From Patescibacteria group bacterium (lineage in GTDB: Bacteria; Patescibacteriota; Minisyncoccia; Phycocordibacterales; GCA-2747955), in the NCBI GenBank assembly GCA_048538215.1, contig JBLYPV010000001.1, forward strand, positions 254,196 through 318,195: a DNA stretch of 64,000 nt. The letters are read 5' to 3'. Under the pieces are notes generated by a model. The model was given only the letters and a program-made list of their open reading frames with translations, was not told the origin of the DNA and ran no database searches. Shown here one piece after another: positions 1 through 63,696 of the stretch. Position 1 is the first letter of the stretch; each line of letters opens with the position of its first letter. The position numbers and the translations under genes were made by a program.

Positions 1-142
1 ATCGTACAGATGGCGACAACCTTATCACTCATGTGTACTTATTTGTTTAGAAAGTATTTTTTCATTATCTTTTCATGTGTCACATACTTACCATTATCTA
101 TTTCCTTAAAGTGCAACATAAGTGTACACTTTGGTGCAACTA

Positions 143-165
143 TTTAGGGACCGGGTCCCTAAGTG
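143..165. repeat. REP-like 23-nt palindrome (consensus ACTTAGGGACC[G/C]GGTCCCTAAGT), copy 1, overlapping the stop of the 159..554 gene
   Basis: Near-identical palindrome recurs at 29883, 30106 and 30606, flanking a RAYT gene. Confidence 0.8.
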
Positions 166-554
166 GTTTTCTGTTTCTTTTTGAAATCAATCACCGCCTT
201 TTGAGTAATGATTTTGACAATTACATTATTAGTGCTCGGTTGATTGTTGATATCATCCAGCAACATATCTGCCTTTTGGAGATGTACGAATTGCTTGTAA
301 CCATCATGGGTGAAAAATGAGATCAACTGCTCGGTAGTATCCAATAATTCTTCCCTGCCTCCATGGCGCTCGACAAAATCTCCTTGATTGACATACTTGG
401 TGGCAATAGCGGTGCGGAATGATTGATGCTCGGCTTCGTGACCAATCATCTGCTCGACCAGCGCATCCACATCTTCATTGATACTCGCGCGCAACCGAGT
501 AGAAAATTCCACTTCATCCCCTGCTGTAATAATATCTTGATAGCTGTATTTCAT
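159..554 (-). CDS. hypothetical protein (131 aa)
   Basis: Intact ORF; promoter-like TATAAT upstream; no recognisable family. Confidence 0.5.
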   Translation of the reverse strand: MKYSYQDIITAGDEVEFSTRLRASINEDVDALVEQMIGHEAEHQSFRTAIATKYVNQGDFVERHGGREELLDTTEQLISFFTHDGYKQFVHLQKADMLLDDINNQPSTNNVIVKIITQKAVIDFKKKQKTT

Positions 555-603
555 ATTTCACATTATACATATTTACACAAATACAAAACCACCTGAGAAT
601 GGT

Positions 604-631
604 TATCGTAGACCCGATGGGAGGAAGTTCG
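604..631. repeat. 26-nt motif GACCnnATGGGAGGAAGTTCGAACTT, copy 1 of 2 (second at 3139..3166)
   Basis: Direct repeat seen at two intergenic sites bracketing a 2.5-kb accessory block. Confidence 0.5.
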
Positions 632-690
632 AACTTTAATTTTACAAAACATTTGCATATAGATGTTTTGTAAAAAGTATCACCTCTACT

Positions 691-716
691 AAAAACACCC
701 ATAAGGGTGTTTTTAG
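691..716. terminator. bidirectional hairpin terminator (AAAACACCC-ATAA-GGGTGTTTT)
   Basis: Stem-loop with flanking A/T runs downstream of the 755..1450 gene. Confidence 0.6.
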
Positions 717-754
717 ATTTTTCTTGAGCATAACAATGCTTGTGTATGATTCTA

Positions 755-1450
755 TTATAACCCTACAGCGTTAACTCCATACTCTGCCTGTGCTTGAGTG
801 TAACCCTCGAATTTAAGTTGATCTATTAGACCACCCCTCGAAAAAGCTGATTGGTCTAGATATGTTTCAGCTGATTTTGCAGCTTGCTCATTCCAGTTTG
901 CCCCAGAATTATCTGCTCCGTAAACAGCATCAGCATTTGAGAATTGTTCAAATTCTAGTTGTTCAATCAATCCCTCACGAGAGAAAGCCATATTATCTAG
1001 ATACGCTTTTGCACTTCTGACTGCGTTTCTTTGGCTCACCGTCTCACCTGGTTGAGAATTATTATTTGATTCATTAGCTTGTTGGGTTTCAGATGGTGTA
1101 GTTGACACCTGATTATCCTCTTGCTCATCTACTGTGTTTTCAACTACAGTTTCAGCATCAGATTCTTCTTGAGTATTATTACTCATTTCTGTATCATTTT
1201 CTTGCTCGGGTTGTTCAGATTGTTCTTGCTCGTTAGTGGCAACTTCATTCGTTTGATTAGATTCTTCGTTTTTATCTTCAGACACTGGCATCAGTATAAT
1301 TATCGCTAGTGATGCTATTCCAAAAATTGTTCCCACTCCTTTACGAGTAGCCCAATTGCCCAATAGTTTCGAGAATACGCTTGGCTTGATCAAGCCCACA
1401 ATTAATGCACCTAGTGATAATATGAATAAAAAAGCTAGTAAGTTCGCCAT
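755..1450 (-). CDS. Ltp-family (phage superinfection-exclusion lipoprotein-like) repeat protein with N-terminal TM helix and acidic low-complexity linker
   Basis: Two tandem C-terminal repeats (NAVRSAKAYLDNMAFSREGLIEQLEFEQFS / AAKSAETYLDQSAFSRGGLIDQLKFEGYT) matching the Ltp repeat consensus; N-terminal hydrophobic helix. Confidence 0.7.
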   Translation of the reverse strand: MANLLAFLFILSLGALIVGLIKPSVFSKLLGNWATRKGVGTIFGIASLAIIILMPVSEDKNEESNQTNEVATNEQEQSEQPEQENDTEMSNNTQEESDAETVVENTVDEQEDNQVSTTPSETQQANESNNNSQPGETVSQRNAVRSAKAYLDNMAFSREGLIEQLEFEQFSNADAVYGADNSGANWNEQAAKSAETYLDQSAFSRGGLIDQLKFEGYTQAQAEYGVNAVGL

Positions 1451-1675
1451 AATTTTGTTTTATTTATGATTAATAATCTAACTATACAGGTTCGCAACAC
1501 TTTTTTCAAAATTATCTCCCACCTGTACTCGTACTAGTTCAATACCTGCTTGCTCGCAAATACGTAGTTTTCTCTATTAGTTTTTGCATAAGTGCAATCT
1601 ATAATTCTTCTGATACACTAAAGTGAGAATAAGATTATATAAGGACACCAAATTTATAAAATTAATATAAAGTTT

Positions 1676-2152
1676 ATGTTTTCAAAAAAAATATCAGAGA
1701 AAGATTGTACCAATCAGATAGCCCAAGCTATAGTGGACATAGTAGACGAATCTGTTGAAGATGAATCACATCCATTATATGAAGTTGTTGACAGAAAGGG
1801 TCAATTACTACTATTACTTCATATGCATTACATGGCATTAAGGGCAACTCAACAAGAATATTTAATATCGGGTTTGTTTTCTCATGTTGTTAATATTGAA
1901 TATCAACCAGACAACAAAGAAAACGCAATTGAGCTGGTAGAAAAAGTGAACGAACAAATCGAAGAGCTATACGAGAACAGTTTTGATGACGACGACAGGC
2001 TCGACTTAGTACTTTTATCTACTAAATTTGCATTAGTACATGTTGATGACGATATAGTTTCACAAATGATTGTTCTCAATTATATAAATGGTGTATGTCC
2101 AGAAATATTTGAATCAATGGGAGAGATAAAAGCAAATGTAGAAATTGTATAG
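1676..2152 (+). CDS. hypothetical acidic protein (158 aa)
   Basis: Intact ORF; no recognisable family. Confidence 0.5.
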   Translation: MFSKKISEKDCTNQIAQAIVDIVDESVEDESHPLYEVVDRKGQLLLLLHMHYMALRATQQEYLISGLFSHVVNIEYQPDNKENAIELVEKVNEQIEELYENSFDDDDRLDLVLLSTKFALVHVDDDIVSQMIVLNYINGVCPEIFESMGEIKANVEIV

Positions 2153-2154
2153 TT

Positions 2155-2313
2155 ATGATTATTAATATACTAGTGGCAATAATAGTTGGAGTTATTCTAG
2201 GAATAACAGGGGCAAAAGGAGGTTGGGTGGTGTTCTTTATGCTTTTTTCGATACTTGTAGTAGGTCCTTTTATTAACTATTTAATAAAACACTGGAATGA
2301 CCCAACTATATAA
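2155..2313 (+). CDS. small hydrophobic membrane protein (52 aa)
   Basis: ATG overlaps stop of upstream gene (TAGTTATG); two predicted TM segments; not in ORF track (<60 aa). Confidence 0.4.
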   Translation: MIINILVAIIVGVILGITGAKGGWVVFFMLFSILVVGPFINYLIKHWNDPTI

Positions 2314-2322
2314 ATATATATT

Positions 2323-2475
2323 ATGAACGATTTACTTTTCATGCTACTTGGCATGCCGCTATTATTTGCTATTTATTGCTTGGTGCCAGAGAAGTATAGC
2401 GGAACTAGTTGGTTTGCAATTAGTTTTTGGATTTTCGGTTGCATTTTCTCAATAATTATTTTTGGAAGGGTATGA
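2323..2475 (+). CDS. small hydrophobic membrane protein (50 aa)
   Basis: Short ORF directly after previous one, strongly hydrophobic. Confidence 0.35.
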   Translation: MNDLLFMLLGMPLLFAIYCLVPEKYSGTSWFAISFWIFGCIFSIIIFGRV

Positions 2476-2490
2476 TTAGCATAATTTGTT

Positions 2491-3000
2491 TTACTTGCAA
2501 TTCAAAACATTACCCACTAGTACTTGTATTAGCTCAATCCCAGCTTGTTCGCAAATACGGTCTTTCTTGTTGTCGGAATCTTTTTGCTTGTCTCCGTTGT
2601 GTGAGTAGCCATCGAGTTCGATAGCTTTCACTACTTCTCCAGAGCTTTTATCTACGAGTACAAAATCAATATGCCGAGATCGAATGGAGTTTCGTTTTAC
2701 TCTTTTGGTCTGCCAATCAAGTGTTGGTTTCACCTGTACAATATCCTCCAGCCTCACTTTTGAGAATAAGTAGTATTTACCCTTATTTTGTTTTTCCAGT
2801 TCAGAAAAAAATATGTATTCTGACTTAGTAAAAAATTTACCACGAGCTTCGTAATAACTGACGAGTTGATCTTTTTGTTTCTGTTCTTTATTTGAATTTT
2901 TATTTACCAAAACAATTGTCGCAAGAATCAAAAGTAAAACTGGCACAACTGTTACAAGTAAAGCCAAGACAATCAAGAAAAAATTAGTGAGTGCTTCCAT
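2491..3000 (-). CDS. DUF2726-domain protein (PD-(D/E)xK nuclease-like) with N-terminal TM helix
   Basis: C-terminal motif RHIDFVLVDK...AIELDGYSH...RICEQAGIELIQV matches DUF2726 pattern; N-terminal hydrophobic segment. Confidence 0.6.
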   Translation of the reverse strand: MEALTNFFLIVLALLVTVVPVLLLILATIVLVNKNSNKEQKQKDQLVSYYEARGKFFTKSEYIFFSELEKQNKGKYYLFSKVRLEDIVQVKPTLDWQTKRVKRNSIRSRHIDFVLVDKSSGEVVKAIELDGYSHNGDKQKDSDNKKDRICEQAGIELIQVLVGNVLNCK

Positions 3001-3138
3001 GTATGTATATTATACTAGCATATAACATTTATATTCTTTGTATAGAAATATACATCAGTACAACGTCGGCTTAGACCCGACACGCAATGATTCACTCTAC
3101 CCAAATAAAAAGACAGCCTCTAGTGCCTGTTTTTTGTT

Positions 3139-3166
3139 GTGGACCTTATGGGAGGAAGTTCGAACT
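3139..3166. repeat. 26-nt motif GACCnnATGGGAGGAAGTTCGAACTT, copy 2
   Basis: Matches 604..631 at 24/26 positions. Confidence 0.5.
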
Positions 3167-3274
3167 TATCATCTATAAACTATATATGTTTGACATATAA
3201 ATACTTTTATTATAATCTAGCCCATCTAGGAATATCTCCTAGTCAAACGAAATACACAATCAGGAGAACGTGTA

Positions 3275-3499
3275 ATGCCCAGCAAAAACAGATCTTTCCG
3301 CTTCGGTGTGCCCGACGACAAGTTCAAGAAGAGCAACTGGTCGAAGAACAATCCGAAGACCTGCGTCGAGGTCGCTTCCGTCGACGAAGGCGTCGCCGTG
3401 CGTGACAGCAAGGACCCGGACAAGGGTGCTCTTTACTTCACCCACGCTGAATGGTCGGCCTTCACTGCTGGCGTCAAGGACGGCGAGTTCGACTACTAA
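3275..3499 (+). CDS. DUF397 domain protein (actinobacterial-type), GC-rich foreign gene
   Basis: Sequence ...CVEVASVDEGVAVRDSKDPDKGALYFTHAEWSAFTAGVKDGEFDY matches the Streptomyces DUF397 consensus; about 60% GC in an AT-rich context; AGGAGA RBS 8 nt upstream. Confidence 0.8.
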   Translation: MPSKNRSFRFGVPDDKFKKSNWSKNNPKTCVEVASVDEGVAVRDSKDPDKGALYFTHAEWSAFTAGVKDGEFDY

Positions 3500-3522
3500 C
3501 CTTGGTCGAAGTCGAATCAATC

Positions 3523-3556
3523 GAGCGGCGGAAACTCTCCGCCGCTCTTTATTTTC
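3523..3556 (+). terminator. rho-independent terminator (GAGCGGCGG-AAACTCT-CCGCCGCTC + T run)
   Basis: GC hairpin followed by TTTATTTTC directly after the DUF397 gene. Confidence 0.75.
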
Positions 3557-3569
3557 TAAATACAATTTT

Positions 3570-4055
3570 ATGCAAAGACATTTATACATCATTCCCGGCC
3601 TTGGAGATACCCCTCATGAGTCATCATACGAAGGTATTGCTTCTAAGGCTCAAAACCTAGGATATACAATTCACCCAATTGAAATTGATTGGAGTAAGCC
3701 TTTGTCTTTGCAAAAATTTTCAGTAGAACAAAACGCTACTATATTTGGTTTTTCTCTTGGGGCATTACTGGCTCATCTTATTGCACAAGAATCTCCAGTA
3801 GAACATATCATTCTTGCTTCGATGACTCCGTTTTATAGCTTTACTGATCCTGAGATTAAACAAGCTCTTGTTGAACTCCTTGGTAAAGATTTTGTCGAAG
3901 ACTTAGAACAAAATCTGCAAGGTACAAATCAGGCAAAGAAAATTACTACAATGTATGGTGATCAAGAAGAGGAAGATGCAGATGTTTTAGTACCAGATAC
4001 TGAGCATGAACTGACAGATAATTATATCGAAAGTATCGTAAAACTTCTCTCGTAA
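3570..4055 (+). CDS. alpha/beta-hydrolase-like esterase/lipase (161 aa)
   Basis: GFSLG (GxSxG) nucleophile elbow; the 3306..4055 ORF is a spurious N-terminal extension across the DUF397 gene in another frame. Confidence 0.6.
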   Translation: MQRHLYIIPGLGDTPHESSYEGIASKAQNLGYTIHPIEIDWSKPLSLQKFSVEQNATIFGFSLGALLAHLIAQESPVEHIILASMTPFYSFTDPEIKQALVELLGKDFVEDLEQNLQGTNQAKKITTMYGDQEEEDADVLVPDTEHELTDNYIESIVKLLS

Positions 4056-4105
4056 AACTTTTACTAAAAATTAAAACACTCATCTGAGTGTTTTAATTTT
4101 TGCTG

Positions 4106-4178
4106 TGGACCTGACAAGACTCGAACTTGCCACCTTCCGCGTGCAAGGCGGACGCTCTACCAGATGAGCTACAGGCCC
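4106..4178 (-). tRNA. tRNA-Ala (anticodon UGC)
   Basis: Cloverleaf GGGCCTG/TA/GCTC..GAGC/ anticodon stem TCCGC-CTTGCAC-GCGGA / T-arm GCAAG-TTCGAGT-CTTGT / discriminator A. Confidence 0.85.
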
Positions 4179-4274
4179 AAATATTTTAAACACAGCGTAT
4201 GAGCACCTAATCTCCAAATTACTGTGACCAAAATTGGTACAAGCATTATATACATTTCACGAATGGATGCAATC

Positions 4275-5531
4275 CTATTTATTCAAATACTCTTGCACCA
4301 AGTATTGCCTATCTCTCGGATCAATGATTTGCTCAAGTGCTTGTTCCATATGGATAGCATGCCTCGACCCTTTTGCCAAAATATAATCACGATGTTTTAT
4401 TTCCCGCTTGAGATACGCTCCCGCTTCACGAGCAGTATCAAAGCATACAGCTTGGGTATTACTCATCCCCGCTTCCTGCGCAGCCTGACAAGCACGCTTA
4501 CCCTCCTCCCCTACCGTGAGAAAAATATCAACAATCTGCGAAGCTTGCTTACCTACTTGTATGTGAGTTTCTTCCGTATGCTCTCCAAGCTCACTCATAT
4601 CTCCAAAAAGAAATATTCGCCGTGCGGGAGCTTCTACCTGTTTAAACATTTCAAGAGCTGCTTGTACCGCAATTGGTGAAGCATTATATGAATCATCTAT
4701 AATGACGCTACTCCGAGTACCTCGCAATAATCGACTACGCCCTGGAGCTGGGTGATAATGGCGAGAAAAATTATCTACTGCCAATTCTGCATCTAATCCT
4801 AAAATACTCACTACTTCAAGCCCCAAACGATACGAGTTTATAATCGGTCTTGACCATACTCCTGGTATCCTCATAGGGAGCCATTTACCCCGATGATGGA
4901 TTTGAGCCTCGGTGCCGTATGGGGTAAAGCGCAGTTGCCGTACCGATCCTTCATTTGAAGCGATGGCTATAGATCTATCACTAAAAGATCCCAAAACCCG
5001 GGCAAGAATTATATCATCTGATGGATACACAATTACCCCATCTTCTCGAGTATAGAGCGCAAGTGATTTTTTCTCATCATACAATTGTTGCTTAGAATCA
5101 AAATATTCTAAATGTACTGGATAGCGTGCCAAGGCGGTAAAGACGGCAATATGTGGTTTAATCCACCTCGCTTGGGAAGAAATATCCCCAGGTGCTCCCG
5201 CCCCTAATTCTAAGATAAGCACTCGAGGATAAGAAAAGCTTAGTAATTGCCAAAAGGCTCGGATAATAATACCCATCCATACAAGGATGCGCAACTCCTT
5301 ATTTTGTACCTCGATACCTAAGATCGAAAGTGGTGTAGTAAGCTCACTATTTTGAGAACGAATAGTAGCTCGTACACTACGAGAGCTTGCCACAAGTGAA
5401 CGCACAACATCTTTGGTCGTTGTCTTTCCTACCGAGCCAGTAATAGCTACGATTTGGGGGTGATGAATAGCTAGCACTATACGCGCTAGTGTCCGAAAGT
5501 ACCAGGAAAAGATTTTGTATAAAATTTTCAT
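4275..5531 (-). CDS. murF: UDP-N-acetylmuramoyl-tripeptide--D-alanyl-D-alanine ligase
   Basis: ITGSVGKTTTK P-loop, DDSYNASP motif, Mur ligase architecture. Confidence 0.85.
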   Translation of the reverse strand: MKILYKIFSWYFRTLARIVLAIHHPQIVAITGSVGKTTTKDVVRSLVASSRSVRATIRSQNSELTTPLSILGIEVQNKELRILVWMGIIIRAFWQLLSFSYPRVLILELGAGAPGDISSQARWIKPHIAVFTALARYPVHLEYFDSKQQLYDEKKSLALYTREDGVIVYPSDDIILARVLGSFSDRSIAIASNEGSVRQLRFTPYGTEAQIHHRGKWLPMRIPGVWSRPIINSYRLGLEVVSILGLDAELAVDNFSRHYHPAPGRSRLLRGTRSSVIIDDSYNASPIAVQAALEMFKQVEAPARRIFLFGDMSELGEHTEETHIQVGKQASQIVDIFLTVGEEGKRACQAAQEAGMSNTQAVCFDTAREAGAYLKREIKHRDYILAKGSRHAIHMEQALEQIIDPRDRQYLVQEYLNK

Positions 5532-9083: not shown

Positions 9084-10727
9084 TTAAGTCATTCCTGCTT
9101 GCTTGAGCGTTTCTTCTGCCATCTTGATAGCTACTTCTTGGGTACTGGCTATACAAATAAAATCACCAGAGCGATGGCAAAATATTGCCCCCTCAATACC
9201 CGACGCTTGCTCCAATGCCTCACCTCGAAGCCCCCACCACTTTCTTGGAAAGCTTAGTCGGCCTCTGAATTTGTAATCAGTTTTGGGCACGGTAGCTACT
9301 CCCCAAGTGGGGGAATCTGTATCCCCTTGTGGAGAAATAATGAGCCGAGTATCTTCAAAGCGAGAAAAATAATCTCGCCCAATCGGCTCTCGCAAAACAA
9401 TCATCTGCTTATCCGCTGCATCCGCATAAGCCCGGCCAGCTTTCCTTCGCTGTTCTACACGGTATTTTGCTTGTTCAACTATACGAGGTAATAGATATTT
9501 TGCCCATTCAACCGCATCATAAAATCTGCTATTTTGTACATAATTATTCCGCTTATCAGAATAATTATAGTATTGTCCAATCACCTCTTGAATGGTGATT
9601 GGACTAATTCCTAAATCATTAAGGTTATATATTTCTTGCCCATTATCTTCCGCATCAATAGCTTGTATAAATTGCTGATCTACCTCATCAACAATGTCTT
9701 GATTATTTTCACATAGTCTAATACCATAATGTTGCCAGATAAGCCCGAGTGAAGCGTAGCCTATTCCATTTGCACGCTCACCTGCTCCAGCAAATTGGTG
9801 ATGATCAAATAAATGATAAGCTGGATCGTAGGCATCACCTATATCAATAAGATAGACCTCCTCTCCTGCTCGTGCTTTTTTGCGGGCAAATTCAATCCGC
9901 TCTTGATTGCGAGTACGGATTACCTTGTACCGCCGTTGTTGTTGCTTGAGTACAAGCTCTAATACTGCTATGGCGAGCACCTCATCGGCATGAAACTTTC
10001 CATCATGGGTATAAATCCACACTGTAGGGCGCAGATAAGCAGAAAAATAAAAAATAAAAAGTGCCGCTAGAATGAGCCCAGCTACAGCAAAGAAGGCGAA
10101 GAGAAGAGCTTCTTCCCCACTCGTAAGCGCCTTGGGCCCAAAAGAAAAAATAAAGGTAAAAGGAATAATACCCAAGGCGGTAGCAAAAAAATATTTTGGG
10201 AAGGATATTTTACTCACCAAGCCCACTGCATAGGAAAGCACATCAGCAGGCACCACAATACGAAGCAATACAAGTACCCAAAAATCCATATTTTTAGGCA
10301 TACGCTCTTCGAGCTTCTCAATTCGCTTGAGTGAGAAAAGCCGTCCTACCAAGGGCTTGCCCCAGCGACGAGCAATCGCATAGGCTATTACCGATCCTAT
10401 AAGCCAGCTTATCCAGGTAGTAATAAAAATGGGCAACGCCCCCATTATCTCTGCCATAAAAGGCACGATGACAGCAATAGAGAGCGGTGCAAAGACTATA
10501 GCAGCTATCGTTGCAAGTGCATAAAGAAAAAGTGAAATCCAGTAGCCATCTACCGATATGATCTGCTGTAGCCACTCAAGTGGATCATTCCAAAAAAGTG
10601 TGGCCATTATGGCTCCTGCGATGACAAAAATTACAGTGTAGGGTAAAACGATACGGGTAAACTGCTTGAGATTCATATAGTGTATTGTACCCGAGAGGAA
10701 TGTAATCACCAACGATACAAGCCTCAA
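9084..10727 (-). CDS. fusion protein: DedA/TVP38-like membrane domain plus MYG1/UPF0160 metal-dependent hydrolase domain
   Basis: N-terminal half multi-TM; C-terminal half contains WIYTHDGKFHADEVLAIAVL... typical of the MYG1 family. Confidence 0.65.
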   Translation of the reverse strand: MRLVSLVITFLSGTIHYMNLKQFTRIVLPYTVIFVIAGAIMATLFWNDPLEWLQQIISVDGYWISLFLYALATIAAIVFAPLSIAVIVPFMAEIMGALPIFITTWISWLIGSVIAYAIARRWGKPLVGRLFSLKRIEKLEERMPKNMDFWVLVLLRIVVPADVLSYAVGLVSKISFPKYFFATALGIIPFTFIFSFGPKALTSGEEALLFAFFAVAGLILAALFIFYFSAYLRPTVWIYTHDGKFHADEVLAIAVLELVLKQQQRRYKVIRTRNQERIEFARKKARAGEEVYLIDIGDAYDPAYHLFDHHQFAGAGERANGIGYASLGLIWQHYGIRLCENNQDIVDEVDQQFIQAIDAEDNGQEIYNLNDLGISPITIQEVIGQYYNYSDKRNNYVQNSRFYDAVEWAKYLLPRIVEQAKYRVEQRRKAGRAYADAADKQMIVLREPIGRDYFSRFEDTRLIISPQGDTDSPTWGVATVPKTDYKFRGRLSFPRKWWGLRGEALEQASGIEGAIFCHRSGDFICIASTQEVAIKMAEETLKQAGMT

Positions 10728-17335: not shown

Positions 17336-17471
17336 AGTCTATATGAATAGCCGAATTAGCTAATTCAGTCAATATCACTACATCAAATGTAGCTAGCTTA
17401 TCACTAAAAAATACGGCTAGCATAGCCGTATTCATAAGATAATTTATCCATTGCTGATATGAGAAAGAGAG

Positions 17472-17543
17472 TCCAACAGGCAGGGATCGAACCTGCGACC
17501 ACGAAGGTATAAGCTTCGCGCTCTACCACTGAGCTACTGTTGG
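17472..17543 (-). tRNA. tRNA with anticodon UAU (putative tRNA-Ile decoding AUA)
   Basis: Perfect cloverleaf CCAACAG/TA/GCTC-AGTGGTA-GAGC/G/CGAAG-CTTATAC-CTTCG/TGGTC/GCAGG-TTCGATC-CCTGC/CTGTTGG/A; anticodon loop CTTATAC puts TAT at positions 34-36. Confidence 0.7.
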
Positions 17544-36454: not shown

Positions 36455-37099
36455 CTAGTGGACGCAACGAACATAAAGGCCATTGCTCTTATCATTCCGG
36501 TACACACTGCCGTTATTGAGGTTCGTACGATATGCGTTCGTGGGCGCAGACGGCGACTCGACAGACGACCAGTAACTGCTCGCCGTAAAGCCTGCTGGTT
36601 TGGCGCTATCTATATCATATAGAGCTCGGAGCGCCGATGGTCCAGACAGGCGCTTGCCAGCACTCTGGCACGCACTGACTGCGCTCGACCAATTCTGCGT
36701 GCCACCAGTATCTGCATCATCAAAGGTGAAGACACCGGTAGGATCAACAGCATAGTAGGTTTCATTGAGAGTTGCAGCCACGCCAAAGTCGATAGTGGCT
36801 AATTCGGCGCGGTAATCACTATAGGTATCAGTAGAGATCCAACAGGCAGCCCCGTCGCTCTTCTCATCCAAGGCTGTTACCATAGTTTGTACGTGGCTAT
36901 CATTACAGAATCCTTCATAGGTTGAGTTGACACTATAGTAGACTGCTGCTTGGCGGTGGATGTTACTGAGAGATGAGCGGATACCAGCTTCTCTAGCATC
37001 CTCTCGTGCGCTGTTGAGTGAGGCCACGACTCCTAGTGAGAGAATACCAATGATAGCGATGACCACCAAGAGTTCGATGAGAGTAAATCCTTGCTTCAT
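36455..37099 (-). CDS. type IV pilin-like protein (prepilin-type N-terminal cleavage/methylation domain); ORF extends in-frame upstream to 37141
   Basis: MKQG|FTLIELLVVIAIIGIL class III signal peptide; alternative longer leader MTLVFCRGGGSIRNMKQG. Confidence 0.8.
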   Translation of the reverse strand: MKQGFTLIELLVVIAIIGILSLGVVASLNSAREDAREAGIRSSLSNIHRQAAVYYSVNSTYEGFCNDSHVQTMVTALDEKSDGAACWISTDTYSDYRAELATIDFGVAATLNETYYAVDPTGVFTFDDADTGGTQNWSSAVSACQSAGKRLSGPSALRALYDIDSAKPAGFTASSYWSSVESPSAPTNAYRTNLNNGSVYRNDKSNGLYVRCVH

Positions 37100-37112
37100 A
37101 TTCCTAATACTA

Positions 37113-37122
37113 CCCCCCCCCC
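37113..37122 (-). repeat. homopolymeric G10 tract (C10 on + strand) in the pilin leader/5' region
   Basis: Ten consecutive G on the coding strand, 14 nt upstream of the MKQG start and inside the in-frame upstream extension (codes GGG). Confidence 0.8.
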
Positions 37123-37313
37123 GGCAAAAAACAAGAGTCATTATCTACTTGTTTCCACAAATCCAAGCTCAAAACATTATAATAAAATACCAACCATAGT
37201 TTCTATTTTACTATTTTACATTTCTCCCCGAGGTATGAATTTTAAATATCTAACAAGCGCACCGGAAGGTGCGCTTGTTAGATGAAAATTGGTTCTTGAA
37301 AATTAAAAATTTA

Positions 37314-40265: not shown

Positions 40266-40904
40266 CTAATCTGCTTGGGCGAGAAGCTTATCAAGCTCCT
40301 CGTGTCCCCGCTGGTAGCGAGGCAACACCTCAGTGGCGAGGAACTCTGCAATTTCCCACTCAGGCATTGAGGCGAGAAACTTTCGAGGATCTTCATGCCC
40401 CATATCCCAAATGATGCCAAAAATAATCAAGCGCATCACTGAGCCTAAGGGGCGATGATGCTCTAACATACCGAGCTCTTCGAGCGTCCACTCGGCTGTC
40501 AGGGCAAAATCATCCTCTGGCAATTCATCTGCATCCGTGGAGAGATACCGATGAAAAGCTCTTTCGCTCGTCCACAGCATCCCGTAATCGCCATTTTCCT
40601 TGCTTTGATACAGGGTGATCTCTGCCATGGCATACCGGCAGTCCATCCGGCAATCTCGCTCCTCCAGCAAGTCATCAATCGATACCATGGCAGTATTGAT
40701 CTTTTCAATCGCCATGGTGTGCTCGCGATATGATGCCTCGATGGGATCAAGCTCTTGTGAAGTGGCTTTGACGGCCACCACCGCGAGCAGAAGCCCGATT
40801 ACAATAAATATGCACAGGCTTCCCCATCCCCAAATGAAGATGGTATCCTGAATCCAATGCTTATACTTTTGCCTCATCACTCCTTTTCCTCCCTTTTTAG
40901 CCAA
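40266..40904 (-). CDS. hypothetical membrane-anchored protein, moderately GC-rich (likely start MRQKYKHW)
   Basis: ORF with one TM helix; GC content above local background. Confidence 0.45.
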   Translation of the reverse strand: MAKKGGKGVMRQKYKHWIQDTIFIWGWGSLCIFIVIGLLLAVVAVKATSQELDPIEASYREHTMAIEKINTAMVSIDDLLEERDCRMDCRYAMAEITLYQSKENGDYGMLWTSERAFHRYLSTDADELPEDDFALTAEWTLEELGMLEHHRPLGSVMRLIIFGIIWDMGHEDPRKFLASMPEWEIAEFLATEVLPRYQRGHEELDKLLAQAD

Positions 40905-48525: not shown

Positions 48526-48628
48526 AGATAGTGTGATTACAACTAATAACTATACTTATAGTATAACAAAATAGACAAATAAAAAATCGAGGCTAGTCGC
48601 GCGCTTCGCGCGCGACTCCTCGACTTGC

Positions 48629-48847
48629 CTATCCATCTCCAGAAGCGACACTTAATCGGTCGCCCGGAGTCGCGTAGGTGACTGCCCGAACAGCCCTACG
48701 CAATGCCTCAATGTCGGGCTCTGGCACCCCGCCAACACTTTCCCGCTCCAGAGCGGTAAGTGCTCGGACACGAATCCCACACCTGCGACAGACAGGGGTG
48801 GTGATGAAGTCGCCACACTTGGGGCACTCAACTTTTTTGTTTGACAT
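48629..48847 (-). CDS. small zinc-ribbon protein, GC-rich (about 63% GC) foreign gene
   Basis: CPKCG...CRRCG; GC far above local background; flanked by GC hairpin GAGTCGCGCGC-TTCG-GCGCGCGACTC. Confidence 0.5.
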   Translation of the reverse strand: MSNKKVECPKCGDFITTPVCRRCGIRVRALTALERESVGGVPEPDIEALRRAVRAVTYATPGDRLSVASGDG

Positions 48848-48935
48848 CCTTACTCTCCCTTAAAAGTGCATTACTGGAAAGATCTTACTCATTAACAAGC
48901 TCTTATATACCAAACTATAGGAGTATTCGCAAGGG

Positions 48936-61697: not shown

Positions 61698-63272
61698 ATG
61701 AAAGAAAAATTCTTTTTGTACGCTCGCAAGTCCACTGATGTCGAGGATAAGCAGGTGATGTCAATTGATGCTCAGTTGGTGGAATTGCGTACATTTGCCC
61801 GTGAGCAAGGGCTAGAGATTGTTGAAGAGTTTGTCGAAAAACAGTCAGCCAAAAAGCTAGGCCGTCCTATCTTTGGGCAAATGCTCTCGCGCATCGAGCA
61901 AGGTGAAGCGTCCGGTATAGTCTCCTGGGCGCCAGACCGTTTAGCTCGTAACTCCGTTGACGGTGGGCAGATTATCCACCTCCTCGACACGTGTGTTCTT
62001 GCGAGTCTCAAGTTCCCGACCTTTTGGTGTGACAACACTTCACAAGGAAAGTTTATGTTGAGCATGGCGTTCGGGCAAAGCAAATACTATGTTGATTCTC
62101 TTTCCGAGAATACGAAACGTGGGCTCAGGCAAAAAGTCCGCTTGGGGCATTGTCCAAGCAAAGCTCCAATCGGATATATCAATGACGTTCGGACTAAAAC
62201 CATCGTTCCAGACAAGAAGCGTGCTCCGATTATTAAAAGAGTGTTTGAGTTATACGCAGTTGGAGACATGCGGCTAGAAGATGTGGCGGACTTTTTCGCC
62301 CAGCACCACGTTACCACCCGTACCGGCAAGAGAATCTCCAAGACTAGAGCGTCTTTTATCCTCTCCAATCCTTTTTATGTTGGATTGTTTAAGTACGGCG
62401 GCGAAGTATATGAAGGCAAGCATGAGCCAATCATCGCAAAGCCACTGTTTGATGAAGCGCAGGCGGTACTCAAAAAGAGAGGTCAGCCAGACCGCAAACC
62501 CAAGAATGAACCGCAACCATACTGCGGACTAATAACCTGCGCTTCCTGCGGGATGATGATAACGGCCGAGAACAAAACGAAGCGACAGAAGAATGGAAAT
62601 ACACACCACTACGTGTATTATCGCTGTACCAAGAAACACAAGAATATTCATTGCCAAGAGAAGTCGCTTCGTTCTGAAGTTCTCGACTCCCAGTTATCAT
62701 CCCTTATCAAAGCAGTGGCTTTGCCCACCGACTGGGCAACCAAACTCAATCAAATGGCTAAAGATGAACACGCACAGTCTAGCCAGTCGGTGTCACAGCT
62801 CGTGAAAGAGAGGCGGCAAGAAATACAAAACAATACTATTAAACTAGACCGCCTTTTAACTGGATATCTAGAGCAAGTTATAGACGAGTTAGATTATCGA
62901 AAAGAAAAAGCCAAGTTACTATCCGAAAAGAAGAGTCTGGAGTCTGAAATAGCTTCTCTTTCACACGCTGTGAATGATTGGCTCGCACCTTTCCAAGACT
63001 GGCTAAAAGACGCTCAGAACTTGGACGAAATCGCTTCTGATTGCAACCTTTTTACGAGAAAGGTTGCCGCCAAAGAAATCTTTGGCTCGCACCTCCGCCT
63101 CAGCGGCCGTCGCGTGGTTGTCTCGTCCTCGGTTGGTGGCTCCACAGAGCCGCCAACGGCATGGGCGGCGCTACGCGCCGCCCATGCCAAAGTTGGTTTA
63201 GAACCCGAAAGTTCTATTCTGGTGCCCAGGGCGGGAATCGAACCCGCACCGCCATTGGCGACAAGATTTTAA
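61698..63272 (+). mobile_element. large serine recombinase (resolvase catalytic domain, recombinase domain, zinc ribbon, coiled-coil); reading frame runs into IR-B' and tRNA-Leu
   Basis: YARKSTD catalytic-Ser region, CGLITCASCG...YYRCTKKHKNIHC zinc ribbon, C-terminal coiled-coil; last about 60 codons lie inside the inverted repeat. Confidence 0.85.
63087..63224. repeat. IR-B': right arm of 138-bp inverted repeat, ending at the 3' CCA end of tRNA-Leu
   Basis: See IR-B. Confidence 0.9.
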
Positions 63273-63305
63273 GTCTTGCGTGTCTACCAATTCCACCACC
63301 TGGGC
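63220..63305 (-). tRNA. tRNA-Leu (anticodon UAA) with genomically encoded CCA
   Basis: GCCCAGGTGGTGGAATTGGTAGACAC..CTTAAAA..long variable arm..GGTTCGATTCC..CCTGGGCACCA. Confidence 0.85.
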
Positions 63306-63400: not shown

Positions 63401-63423
63401 CCTCGTCGAAAAATAGTTGCAGG

Positions 63424-63495
63424 AGGCGTAGGCGGGAATCGAACCCGCTCGTGGCGGTTTTGCAGACCGCAGTGTTCCCACTTCACCACTACGCC
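63424..63495 (-). tRNA. tRNA-Cys (anticodon GCA)
   Basis: GGCGTAG acceptor, short D-stem, anticodon loop CTGCAAA, GGTTCGATTCC T-arm, U73 discriminator typical of Cys. Confidence 0.8.
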
Positions 63496-63620: not shown

Positions 63621-63693
63621 CCCCTTGTAGCTCAGTTGGTAGAGCAGCAGCCTCTTAAGCTGACGGTCCTAGGTTCGAATCCTAGCGGGGGGA
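63621..63693 (+). tRNA. tRNA-Lys (anticodon CUU)
   Basis: TAGCTCAGTTGGTAGAGC D-arm, anticodon loop CTCTTAA, GGTTCGAATCC T-arm; acceptor stem has two G-U pairs. Confidence 0.7.
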
Positions 63694-63696
63694 CTC

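Follow-up and report, generated by a model that had tools for sequence, protein, structure and literature searches.

How does a short GC-rich gene, of a domain described as exclusive to actinobacteria (PMC7159879; PMC2701414), come to stand in an AT-rich genome of the candidate phyla radiation (CPR)? The question is posed by a stretch of 64,000 nucleotides from a Patescibacteria group bacterium (contig JBLYPV010000001.1, positions 254,196 to 318,195; this whole stretch is called here the window), which contains a gene for a 74-residue DUF397 (BldB-like) protein. A sequence-only reading of this DNA had considered the gene, its ribosome-binding site and its GC-rich terminator to be a compact block recently acquired from a high-GC actinobacterium, in keeping with an epibiotic lifestyle such as that of Saccharibacteria. 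The analysis described here leads to a different account, which is held to be reasonably probable: that the gene belongs to an old DUF397 branch of CPR bacteria and phages, and that it forms, with the gene of a small hydrolase, a mobile, moron-like two-gene module in which the DUF397 protein probably controls the hydrolase.

The assignment to the family was confirmed. The 74-residue open reading frame (ORF), whose C-terminus is exactly the one quoted in the sequence-only reading, matches the Pfam profile PF04149 (DUF397) over profile positions 3-55 of 55, with E=7.1e-19 and 68.2 bits against a gathering score of 24, and it also matches phrog_10815 (4e-23). The conserved blocks reported for the family are KSS.S, CVEVA and VAVRDSK.P (PMC10294661), the CxE motif lying in strand 2 and the RDS motif at the end of strand 3 (PMC7159879). 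Both hallmarks are found in the window protein, as C30-V-E32 and R43-D44-S45. In an alignment of 33 sequences C30, R43 and S45 are invariant; the Glu of CxE varies within the CPR branch (CVMVA, CVQVA and others) and is kept in the window protein. An AlphaFold2 (AF2) model (pLDDT 82) shows a short strand at residues 18-19, strands at 31-35, 40-44 and 52-55, and a helix at 57-68, a predicted architecture of β-strands followed by a terminal α-helix that agrees with that of the family. No PDB neighbour was found by sequence, and none by fold (best Foldseek E=1.2); NCBIfam gave no match for the protein, and PADLOC gave none for DUF397, the hydrolase or the neighbouring genes. The 64-kb window contains a single DUF397 copy.

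The sharp contrast in composition between the gene and its surroundings, already pointed out from the sequence, was also borne out. The ORF has 56.9% GC, against 41.9% for the whole window, and the richest 200-nt stretch reaches 58.5%, so that the earlier figure of about 60% was right in describing a GC-rich block and slightly generous as a number. The GC content at third codon positions (GC3) is 0.787, compared with 0.354 ± 0.074 for the 52 long ORFs of the window, and redrawing the codons of the same protein from the usage of the window gives an expected value of 0.343 ± 0.052 (z=8.8). None of 530 in-frame 74-codon windows taken from other genes reaches 0.70 (the maximum is 0.62), and all the other ORFs have a GC3 of 0.575 or less. 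Within the DUF397 gene, 24 of the 25 codons ending in a pyrimidine (NNY) are NNC, and GCT makes up 4 of the 6 Ala codons, versus 9% in actinobacterial copies.

The relatives of the window protein show that it lies in a distinct branch of the family, present in low-GC CPR genomes and in at least one low-GC phage. An identical protein is on record from an NCBI metagenome-assembled genome (MAG) labelled 'Patescibacteria group bacterium'. The closest homologues are the protein of a sister locus (L092), which is 92% identical, and others ranging from 72% down to about 50% identity, all of them encoded in low-GC CPR contigs or low-GC phage; the next-best proteins (60-72% identity, full length) come from contigs of 41-55% GC in which each DUF397 gene is itself GC-rich. 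The best actinobacterial match, in contrast to the 72-92% identity over the full length of CPR relatives, attains at most 65% identity over about 77% of the protein (at most 58 bits). When one genome per GTDB species was scanned, the top of the ranking was occupied by Candidatus Campbellbacteria (including a complete 752-kb genome), Zambryskibacteria, Niyogibacteria and Paceibacterota, together with several 'uncultured Candidatus Saccharibacteria' MAGs and one 'Patescibacteria group' MAG, and Actinomycetota ranked after all these. Most of the carriers that have a name belong to Paceibacteria-type lineages, and the MAG of the window bears just the label 'Patescibacteria group'; the suggested link to a Saccharibacteria-like epibiotic life is therefore not supported. 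A scan of JGI metagenomes yielded 15 further low-GC loci, all of the CPR sequence type, and 65 high-GC loci, all of the actinobacterial type, with no CPR-type DUF397 in a high-GC context among these 80. A profile of the branch, run against 1.84 billion cluster representatives, retrieved 10,730 DUF397 clusters at E<=1e-3, and most of the top 60 or so are, by eye, of the Lys-rich low-GC type.

This low-GC type carries derived motifs: an N-terminal F.V.D.DF..S extension, WSKNNP-KTCV in place of SG.NGG.CVEV, a ..K.T (DxxK.T) loop in place of.GP.L, and a one-residue deletion before VAVRDSK. In a neighbour-joining (NJ) tree of 22 low-GC and 64 actinobacterial sequences (75 columns) the two groups split with a bootstrap of 168/200, and in a larger one (34 versus 125 sequences, 58-column core) the best tree again contains one pure low-GC split. 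Since the family has its centre of diversity in Actinomycetota, an ultimate actinobacterial origin is plausible; the branch would derive from an old transfer out of that phylum and would then have spread within CPR, partly through phages. A literature search found no paper on DUF397 together with Patescibacteria. The annotation of these loci deserves a comment: in L092 the gene (128-349) was missed by gene callers and an overlapping frame is annotated instead, in L094 (4720-4923) and L095 an antisense ORF of 101 residues takes its place, and in the window two decoy frames, a 249-residue ORF (3306..4055) and a 110-residue antisense ORF (3260..3592), overlap the gene. As callers systematically miss or mis-frame this GC-rich mini-gene in AT-rich contigs, CPR DUF397 proteins are under-counted in protein databases.

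The second component, overlooked in the sequence-only reading, is a conserved gene downstream of DUF397, with which it makes a two-gene unit. Clustering of neighbours in the first 22 low-GC loci showed that in 14 of them a homologue of about 160 residues lies 26-108 bp downstream of DUF397 on the same strand. Seven further pairs were found in the metagenome set, besides those of L092 and L094/L095; once duplicates were removed, 18-19 of the roughly 31 loci whose downstream sequence is long enough to tell were seen to have the partner (about 60%; 18/34 in the enlarged set), and none of the high-GC loci has it. Protein distances of DUF397 and the partner correlate (Spearman 0.665, Mantel p~6e-4, 18 loci), so the two genes share a history. 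The AF2 model of the partner (pLDDT 94.7) has a predicted α/β-hydrolase core fold with a GxSxG elbow and a His, and Foldseek retrieves α/β hydrolases, including RBBP9, YdeN-like proteins and YqiA, at E 4.5e-5 and weaker. In an alignment of 30 homologues G60, F61, S62, G64 and H146 are invariant, and the candidate acid residues are D111 and E133, also invariant, and D138, conserved in 90%. The protein falls below all Pfam cut-offs (Abhydrolase_1, 15.8 versus 25.8; Hydrolase_4, 19-26 versus 27 in homologues). More than 150 homologues were found and all the named ones are from CPR (Campbell-, Zambryski-, Vogel- and Pace-bacteria). A further neighbour that recurs in six loci, a 530-residue HATPase_c protein, was left out of the module; it proved to be a HisKA/HATPase sensor kinase that shares local synteny with the TrpRS/AspRS genes (L002, L094).

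What the locus lacks is the usual companion of DUF397. A profile of the WhiJ-type XRE regulators, spanning the helix-turn-helix (HTH) and the DUF5753 region, was built from the partners at actinobacterial loci and matched 109 of 128 high-GC loci (85%) and none of the true low-GC loci (about 46, searched over ±4-8 kb); at E<=0.01 the 64-kb window gave no match either, in agreement with the sequence-only reading, which had declared the XRE gene absent there.

The DUF397 gene is, to judge from its signals, an autonomous mini-gene with its own predicted promoter, Shine-Dalgarno (SD) sequence and strong terminator (Table 1); the last two had been recognised before. Both promoter hexamers are kept in the sister locus. 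A generic promoter scan limited to spacers of 16-18 nt missed this site because its spacer is 15 nt. Across the clade, a scan with a sigma-70-like consensus gave scores of at least 10/12 in 16 of 31 loci, versus 4.3% of control windows; exact TTGACA occurs in 14 of 31, usually about 85 nt before the start codon, and an SD match of at least 4 nt in 18 of 31. The hairpin of the window terminator, which proper spans 3523-3547, is followed by a T-rich tail and is 91% conserved in L092, including one G-U-compatible change. A GC-rich hairpin with a T-tail follows the DUF397 stop in 28 of 33 clade loci, the stem sequences differing between loci, and the control rates were 60/223 (27%) after other long ORFs and 60/400 (15%) in random windows. 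An inverted repeat in the 5' untranslated region (UTR) is a possible, weakly supported candidate for an operator or hairpin.

The genomic surroundings indicate mobility. The module is found in unrelated contexts, namely the S10 ribosomal operon, the dnaK operon, ABC transporters and, in the window, tRNA-Ala and murF. It is also present in an IMG/VR phage contig (L176, 40.7% GC) that encodes TerL (7e-32), TerS and a ParB/methyltransferase (9e-84): here a DUF397 gene with GC3 0.88 is followed by a hairpin and then by a diverged hydrolase of the same family. The many contexts, together with this phage copy, suggest that the DUF397-hydrolase pair behaves as a mobile, moron-like accessory module. 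The remaining ten viral DUF397 matches are high-GC and of the actinobacterial type. Two high-GC (69%) IMG/VR viral contigs (L179:4629-5236 and L183:3187-3533) carry two or three tandem DUF397 genes of the actinobacterial type; actinophages thus also carry the family, which agrees with its reported multi-copy habit.

The sister locus deserves separate mention. Its module of 1.09 kb (DUF397 plus hydrolase) is bracketed by an exact direct repeat of 23 nt, GTTGGGTTCATTTGTTTGATGTG (L092:13-35 and 1104-1126), and the contig stops exactly at the second copy of GTTGGGTTCATTTGTTTGATGTG. The tRNA-Ala of the window is not downstream of the module in L092 and the tail of L092 has no match in the window, so the downstream context differs even in the closest relative.

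The GC-richness itself is harder to understand. In the 28 loci that offer a usable background, the GC3 of DUF397 exceeds the local value by a mean of +0.177 (Wilcoxon p=4e-6), whereas that of the hydrolase lies below it (-0.124, n=15, p=1.2e-4), and DUF397 has the higher value in all loci having both genes. Among two-fold codons, both those ending in C (0.64 vs 0.35) and those ending in G (0.56 vs 0.37) are enriched in DUF397. Synonymous sites are saturated between loci, with ratios of observed to expected differences of 0.96 for DUF397 and 0.99 for the hydrolase. Given this saturation, the GC-richness can be taken neither for a relic frozen in time nor for a nucleotide element under conservation; together with the clade-wide excess, the saturation means that it represents a maintained state rather than the trace or timestamp of a recent transfer. 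A leftover of recent transfer predicts that GC would be lost in long-resident orthologues and that the hydrolase would be GC-rich; neither was seen, and this view fails. A conserved antisense gene was discarded as the cause, because only 15 of 34 loci keep the codon-aligned antisense frame open, and a conserved RNA structure was not supported by folding against synonymous-codon shuffles (mean z -1.3 in 12 loci, +0.66 for the window). Some gene-specific force would keep up the excess; the candidates are selection favouring a stable, GC-rich mRNA and, at a recombination hot spot, GC-biased gene conversion.

As for the function of the module, BldB from Streptomyces does not bind DNA, hetero-oligomerises with DUF397 paralogues and acts via neighbouring WhiJ-type regulators (PMC10294661), and DUF397 has been recruited into other conflict systems that have no HTH partner (PMC7159879). 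The analogy with BldB and the conserved gene order led to the proposal that the DUF397 protein controls the hydrolase. A separate, strongly terminated transcript would supply this small protein in excess, and as a regulator or inhibitor it would bind and control the adjacent hydrolase, the effector; the module could then be a toxin-antitoxin (TA)-like or phage-host conflict system exchanged by phages and CPR genomes.

Comparison with known systems shows how much is shared and how much is not. The XRE-DUF397 (WhiJ-BldB) pairs, such as Scr1/Scr2 (SCO4441/4442) and WhiJ9/BldB9, have the same Pfam domain in proteins of about 65-80 residues, with the conserved Cys (CVEV), VAVRDSK, a C-terminal EW.AF..G...G.F helix and the same predicted secondary structure, and they likewise place a small non-enzymatic protein beside a larger partner. 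Unlike them, the window gene has no XRE/HTH_31-DUF5753 gene upstream and has a serine hydrolase downstream, belongs to a CPR or CPR-type phage host, is present once in 64 kb instead of in many paralogous copies, is by prediction monocistronic, ending in a terminator of its own, and shows the motifs of its branch. Phage morons are autonomous promoter-gene-terminator cassettes whose composition is unlike that of their neighbours, and the window cassette shares the predicted promoter, the SD, the terminator and the contrast; the L176 homologue stands in a phage contig by terminase and methyltransferase genes, and the window cassette has as neighbour a superinfection-exclusion gene of Ltp type, assigned to the 'moron' class in PHROGs. 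The cassette departs from morons in that the contrast persists in many hosts and does not mirror the latest donor, and in that the window has no flanking integrase or structural genes. The VMAP-ternary conflict systems (Kaur, Burroughs, Iyer & Aravind 2020, PMC7159879), proposed to act through multimeric protein complexes, provide a precedent for a DUF397 uncoupled from XRE and joined to another effector, although they are actinobacterial, have tandem DUF397 copies and are linked to vWA/MoxR, instead of a single copy and a minimal hydrolase in CPR. With type II TA systems (Makarova et al. 2009, PMC2701414) the module has in common a compact, mobile two-gene plan, a small upstream and a larger downstream protein, and presence in phage and chromosome; it differs in having no DNA-binding antitoxin and no PADLOC match, and two reports (PMC10364602, PMC12516864) describe 15 S. 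coelicolor XRE-DUF397 pairs as pleiotropic regulators rather than TA systems. The partner, finally, resembles RBBP9, YdeN-like proteins and YqiA in predicted fold, GxSxG, an invariant His near the C-terminus, a size of 160-190 residues and the absence of a lid, but with an identity of 12-19% and TM-scores of 0.55-0.68 it represents a CPR-specific family.

The explanations that compete with an old CPR/phage module can now be weighed. A recent, direct import of the 330-bp block from a high-GC actinobacterium, possibly the host of a Saccharibacteria-like epibiont, with the GC content as the signature of the donor, is very improbable. The overwhelmingly actinobacterial distribution of the family, the variable region in which the gene lies, its GC3 of 0.79 and its two-fold codon choices (AAG, GAC, TTC, GTC), which resemble those of actinobacterial DUF397 genes, would suit it, but such choices are expected of any GC3-rich gene and the preference for GCT among Ala codons is unlike that of actinobacterial copies. 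Besides, CPR relatives are closer than the best actinobacterial match, all the signatures of the CPR branch are present, the carriers are mostly Paceibacteria-type and not Saccharibacteria, and the same GC-rich gene is linked to, and co-diverges with, a CPR-specific AT-rich hydrolase in many lineages. With its best relatives in CPR and phage, in a separate split, and a GC3 excess that is clade-wide at saturation, the transfer proposed in the sequence-only reading is strongly disfavoured. That reading had itself named two findings that would speak against it, and one of them was obtained (the best homologues are in CPR genomes and have a similar gene composition), whereas the other, a GC3 that does not deviate, was not. 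The abrupt switch in composition over about 330 bp might also suggest a chimeric assembly or contaminating actinobacterial reads in a CPR contig, a possibility of negligible weight, because a GC-rich DUF397 in a low-GC context recurs in dozens of ENA, JGI, Logan and NCBI assemblies; the promoter, UTR and flanks of the gene are AT-rich and CPR-type, and an independent run (L092) shows the arrangement again, 85% identical in nucleotides. Very unlikely, too, is a canonical DUF397-XRE TA or regulatory pair whose XRE gene lies elsewhere, with the hydrolase as an unrelated neighbour. DUF397 was indeed predicted as a TA toxin paired with Xre (PMC2701414), and the genome measures about 623 kb or more, of which the search for XRE covered 64 kb; against this stand the absence of WhiJ-type XRE near about 46 low-GC loci versus its presence in 85% of high-GC ones, the recurrence of the hydrolase, with co-divergence, in deeply diverged loci and in phage, and the regulatory role described for the S. 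coelicolor pairs in the two reports cited above. Highly doubtful, finally, is that the CPR/phage protein mimics BldB-type proteins and, delivered by an epibiont or its phage into an actinobacterial host or active at the interface with it, re-programmes the development of that host by hetero-oligomerising with its DUF397/WhiJ proteins, the hydrolase being a co-effector; equally doubtful is the corollary that the GC-rich codons are kept by host-tied selection or by continual gene conversion with host-derived DNA. Inspection of the N-termini of DUF397 and the hydrolase revealed no signal peptide, which counts against mimicry, and the prevalence of Paceibacteria-type carriers, as well as a clade that appears closed to actinobacterial sequences, leaves it with little support.

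Two further explanations concern the composition more directly. A recent acquisition or allelic replacement within CPR or through a phage, from a GC-richer CPR genome or phage, such that part of the offset of the window copy is a signature of transfer added to the clade-wide bias, is possible, though on balance unlikely. It is favoured by the phage that carries the module, by contexts that vary even between the window and L092, by the direct repeats and the Ltp/DUF2726 island that adjoin DUF397, by the better conservation of DUF397 and its terminator than of the hydrolase in that pair, and by CPR-type copies with GC3 0.78-0.94 on contigs of 53-55% GC (L006, L008). But the nearest non-sister relative is just 72% identical, the co-diverging hydrolase is AT-rich, and DUF397 is above its own background even in the GC-richest CPR contexts and in phage, so that no sampled donor has DUF397 at equilibrium. 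Translational selection, by which an extremely highly expressed DUF397 would use C-ending codons as optimal ones, is improbable. It agrees with the NNC bias (24 of 25), with strong promoter hexamers, SD and terminator, and with GCT, GGT and CGT being commoner than in actinobacterial copies; yet G-ending two-fold codons are also enriched, which indicates a general G+C effect, the GC3 of DUF397 is far above that of ribosomal-protein or chaperone genes (0.94 vs 0.64 in L006; 0.66 vs 0.29 in L094), and no other ORF of the window exceeds 0.575. In CPR bacteria with one rRNA operon and few tRNA genes, codon selection is expected to be weak, which also counts against this explanation.

The account preferred here, that of an old CPR/phage branch in a mobile module with the hydrolase, has to face several contrary points. 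The coupling is facultative: the hydrolase is missing from about 40% of CPR-type loci, and members of its family exist apart from DUF397, in L093 and as additional paralogues in L012 and L015. The monophyly of the branch depends on alignments of 58-75 columns and on NJ; in the larger tree the exact split has a bootstrap of 18/100, with an average of 31 of the 34 low-GC sequences together. Between the window and L092, nucleotide identity is 93% in DUF397, 91% in the terminator, 82% in the hydrolase and 64-75% in the outer flanks, and synonymous differences are 9/65 in DUF397 and 41/128 in the hydrolase (Fisher p=0.009), a pattern that fits either recent recombination of the DUF397 block or constraint on its synonymous sites. 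The GC3 offset of the window copy (+0.44) is among the largest and the gene lies in a variable segment beside tRNA-Ala, so a fairly recent intra-CPR or phage-mediated replacement may contribute in this lineage. The 15-nt spacer of the predicted promoter is non-canonical, and an XRE partner may possibly lie in the 623-kb genome beyond the 64-kb window. The interaction of the DUF397 protein with the hydrolase, held most likely, is argued by analogy.

Table 1. Features predicted or found around the DUF397 gene (positions in the window)
Feature	Position	Strand	Remarks
34-nt direct repeat	left 603-636, right 3134..3167		85% identity, identical 18-mer core GGGAGGAAGTTCGAACTT
ORFs of the AT-rich segment	755-1450, 1676-2152, 2155-2475, 2491-3000	-, +, +, -	left of DUF397
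Promoter-like TTGACA-15 nt-TATAAT	3190..3216	+	read from the sequence; implied 5' UTR of about 50-58 nt
Inverted repeat CTAGGA-N5-TCCTAG in the 5' UTR	3226..3242	+	read from the sequence; partly kept in L092 (CTAGGA...TCCTGG)
Shine-Dalgarno AGGAG	3262..3266	+	8 nt before ATG; kept in L092
DUF397 (BldB-like) small-protein gene, CPR-type branch	3275..3499	+	74 aa, GC3 0.79
Predicted intrinsic terminator	3523..3557	+	10-bp stem (8 G-C), 5-nt loop, tail TTTATTTTCT; between DUF397 and hydrolase gene
Partner, lid-less α/β serine hydrolase (predicted), GFSLG nucleophile elbow	3570..4055	+	161 aa, GC3 0.24
17-nt perfect inverted repeat, AT-rich hairpin, AAAAATTAAAACACTCA / TGAGTGTTTTAATTTTT	4066..4101		between hydrolase stop and tRNA-Ala
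tRNA-Ala(TGC)	4105..4178	-	borders the variable AT-rich left segment of the window

On the left, the two copies of the 34-nt repeat bracket a 2.5-kb AT-rich segment (27-39% GC) with the DUF397 cassette at its right edge. The core shared by both copies, GGGAGGAAGTTCGAACTT, contains the palindrome AAGTTCGAACTT and has two matches in 64 kb, versus none expected from shuffles; the right copy stops 23 nt short of the -35 hexamer of DUF397, and L092 presents a 24-nt gap across the core. The repeat could be an insertion, attachment or regulatory site. The segment encodes an Ltp-type host cell surface-exposed lipoprotein/superinfection-exclusion protein (Pfam 101 bits; phrog_4980, 1e-33), a 158-residue protein without assigned function, two small membrane ORFs and a membrane-anchored DUF2726 protein (86 bits), whose divergent gene is the upstream neighbour of DUF397. 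It looks like a prophage remnant or island, and no integrase or phage structural genes were seen around the window cassette. On the right, the AT-rich hairpin following the hydrolase is probably a bidirectional terminator. The tRNA-Ala was rejected as an attachment site, as no repeat of its 3' end was found in positions 1-4300.

Other features of the window were recorded along the way. At its right end a 524-residue ORF (61698-63272, +) has a GC3 of 0.51, well above the window mean, and an N-terminus (MKEKFFLYARKSTD) that reads as that of a large serine recombinase; its 3' end overlaps a tRNA-Leu (63220-63305, -), with tRNA-Cys (63422-63495, -) and tRNA-Lys (63621-63694, +) close by, and a further mobile element may be present here. 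Another short outlier in composition lies at 48576-48850, the GC-richest 225-nt stretch of the window (62%), which has no Rfam match and is overlapped by a 72-residue Cys-rich ORF (48629-48847, -; MSNKKVECPKCGDF...CRRCG), zinc-ribbon-like and with GC3 0.54. Two ORFs with raised GC3, 36455-37141 (-; 0.50), whose N-terminus (GFTLIELLVVIAIIGIL) is type IV prepilin-like, and 40266-40904 (-; 0.57), are possibly laterally acquired or differently constrained. The tRNA-Ile at 17471-17543 (-) has the anticodon TAT (UAU), an uncommon mode of reading AUA in bacteria. The ORF at 9084-10727 (-) was ruled out as a chaperonin: it is a fusion of 530-546 residues between a SNARE-associated/TVP38 membrane domain (PF09335) and MYG1/UPF0160 (PF03690), with full-length relatives of 37-72% identity that are mostly unnamed metagenome proteins.

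The family to which the window protein belongs was already known; what is new is a sizeable and diverse DUF397 branch in CPR bacteria and in a CPR-type phage. With a minimal serine hydrolase in place of the usual partner, the branch provides a less complex, two-protein setting in which to probe the function of the DUF397 fold. The opposite GC3 offsets of two co-inherited neighbours, at synonymous saturation, constitute a natural test, in tiny AT-rich genomes, of forces beyond mutation bias and amelioration, and they illustrate that a compositional anomaly alone is an unreliable clock for horizontal gene transfer.

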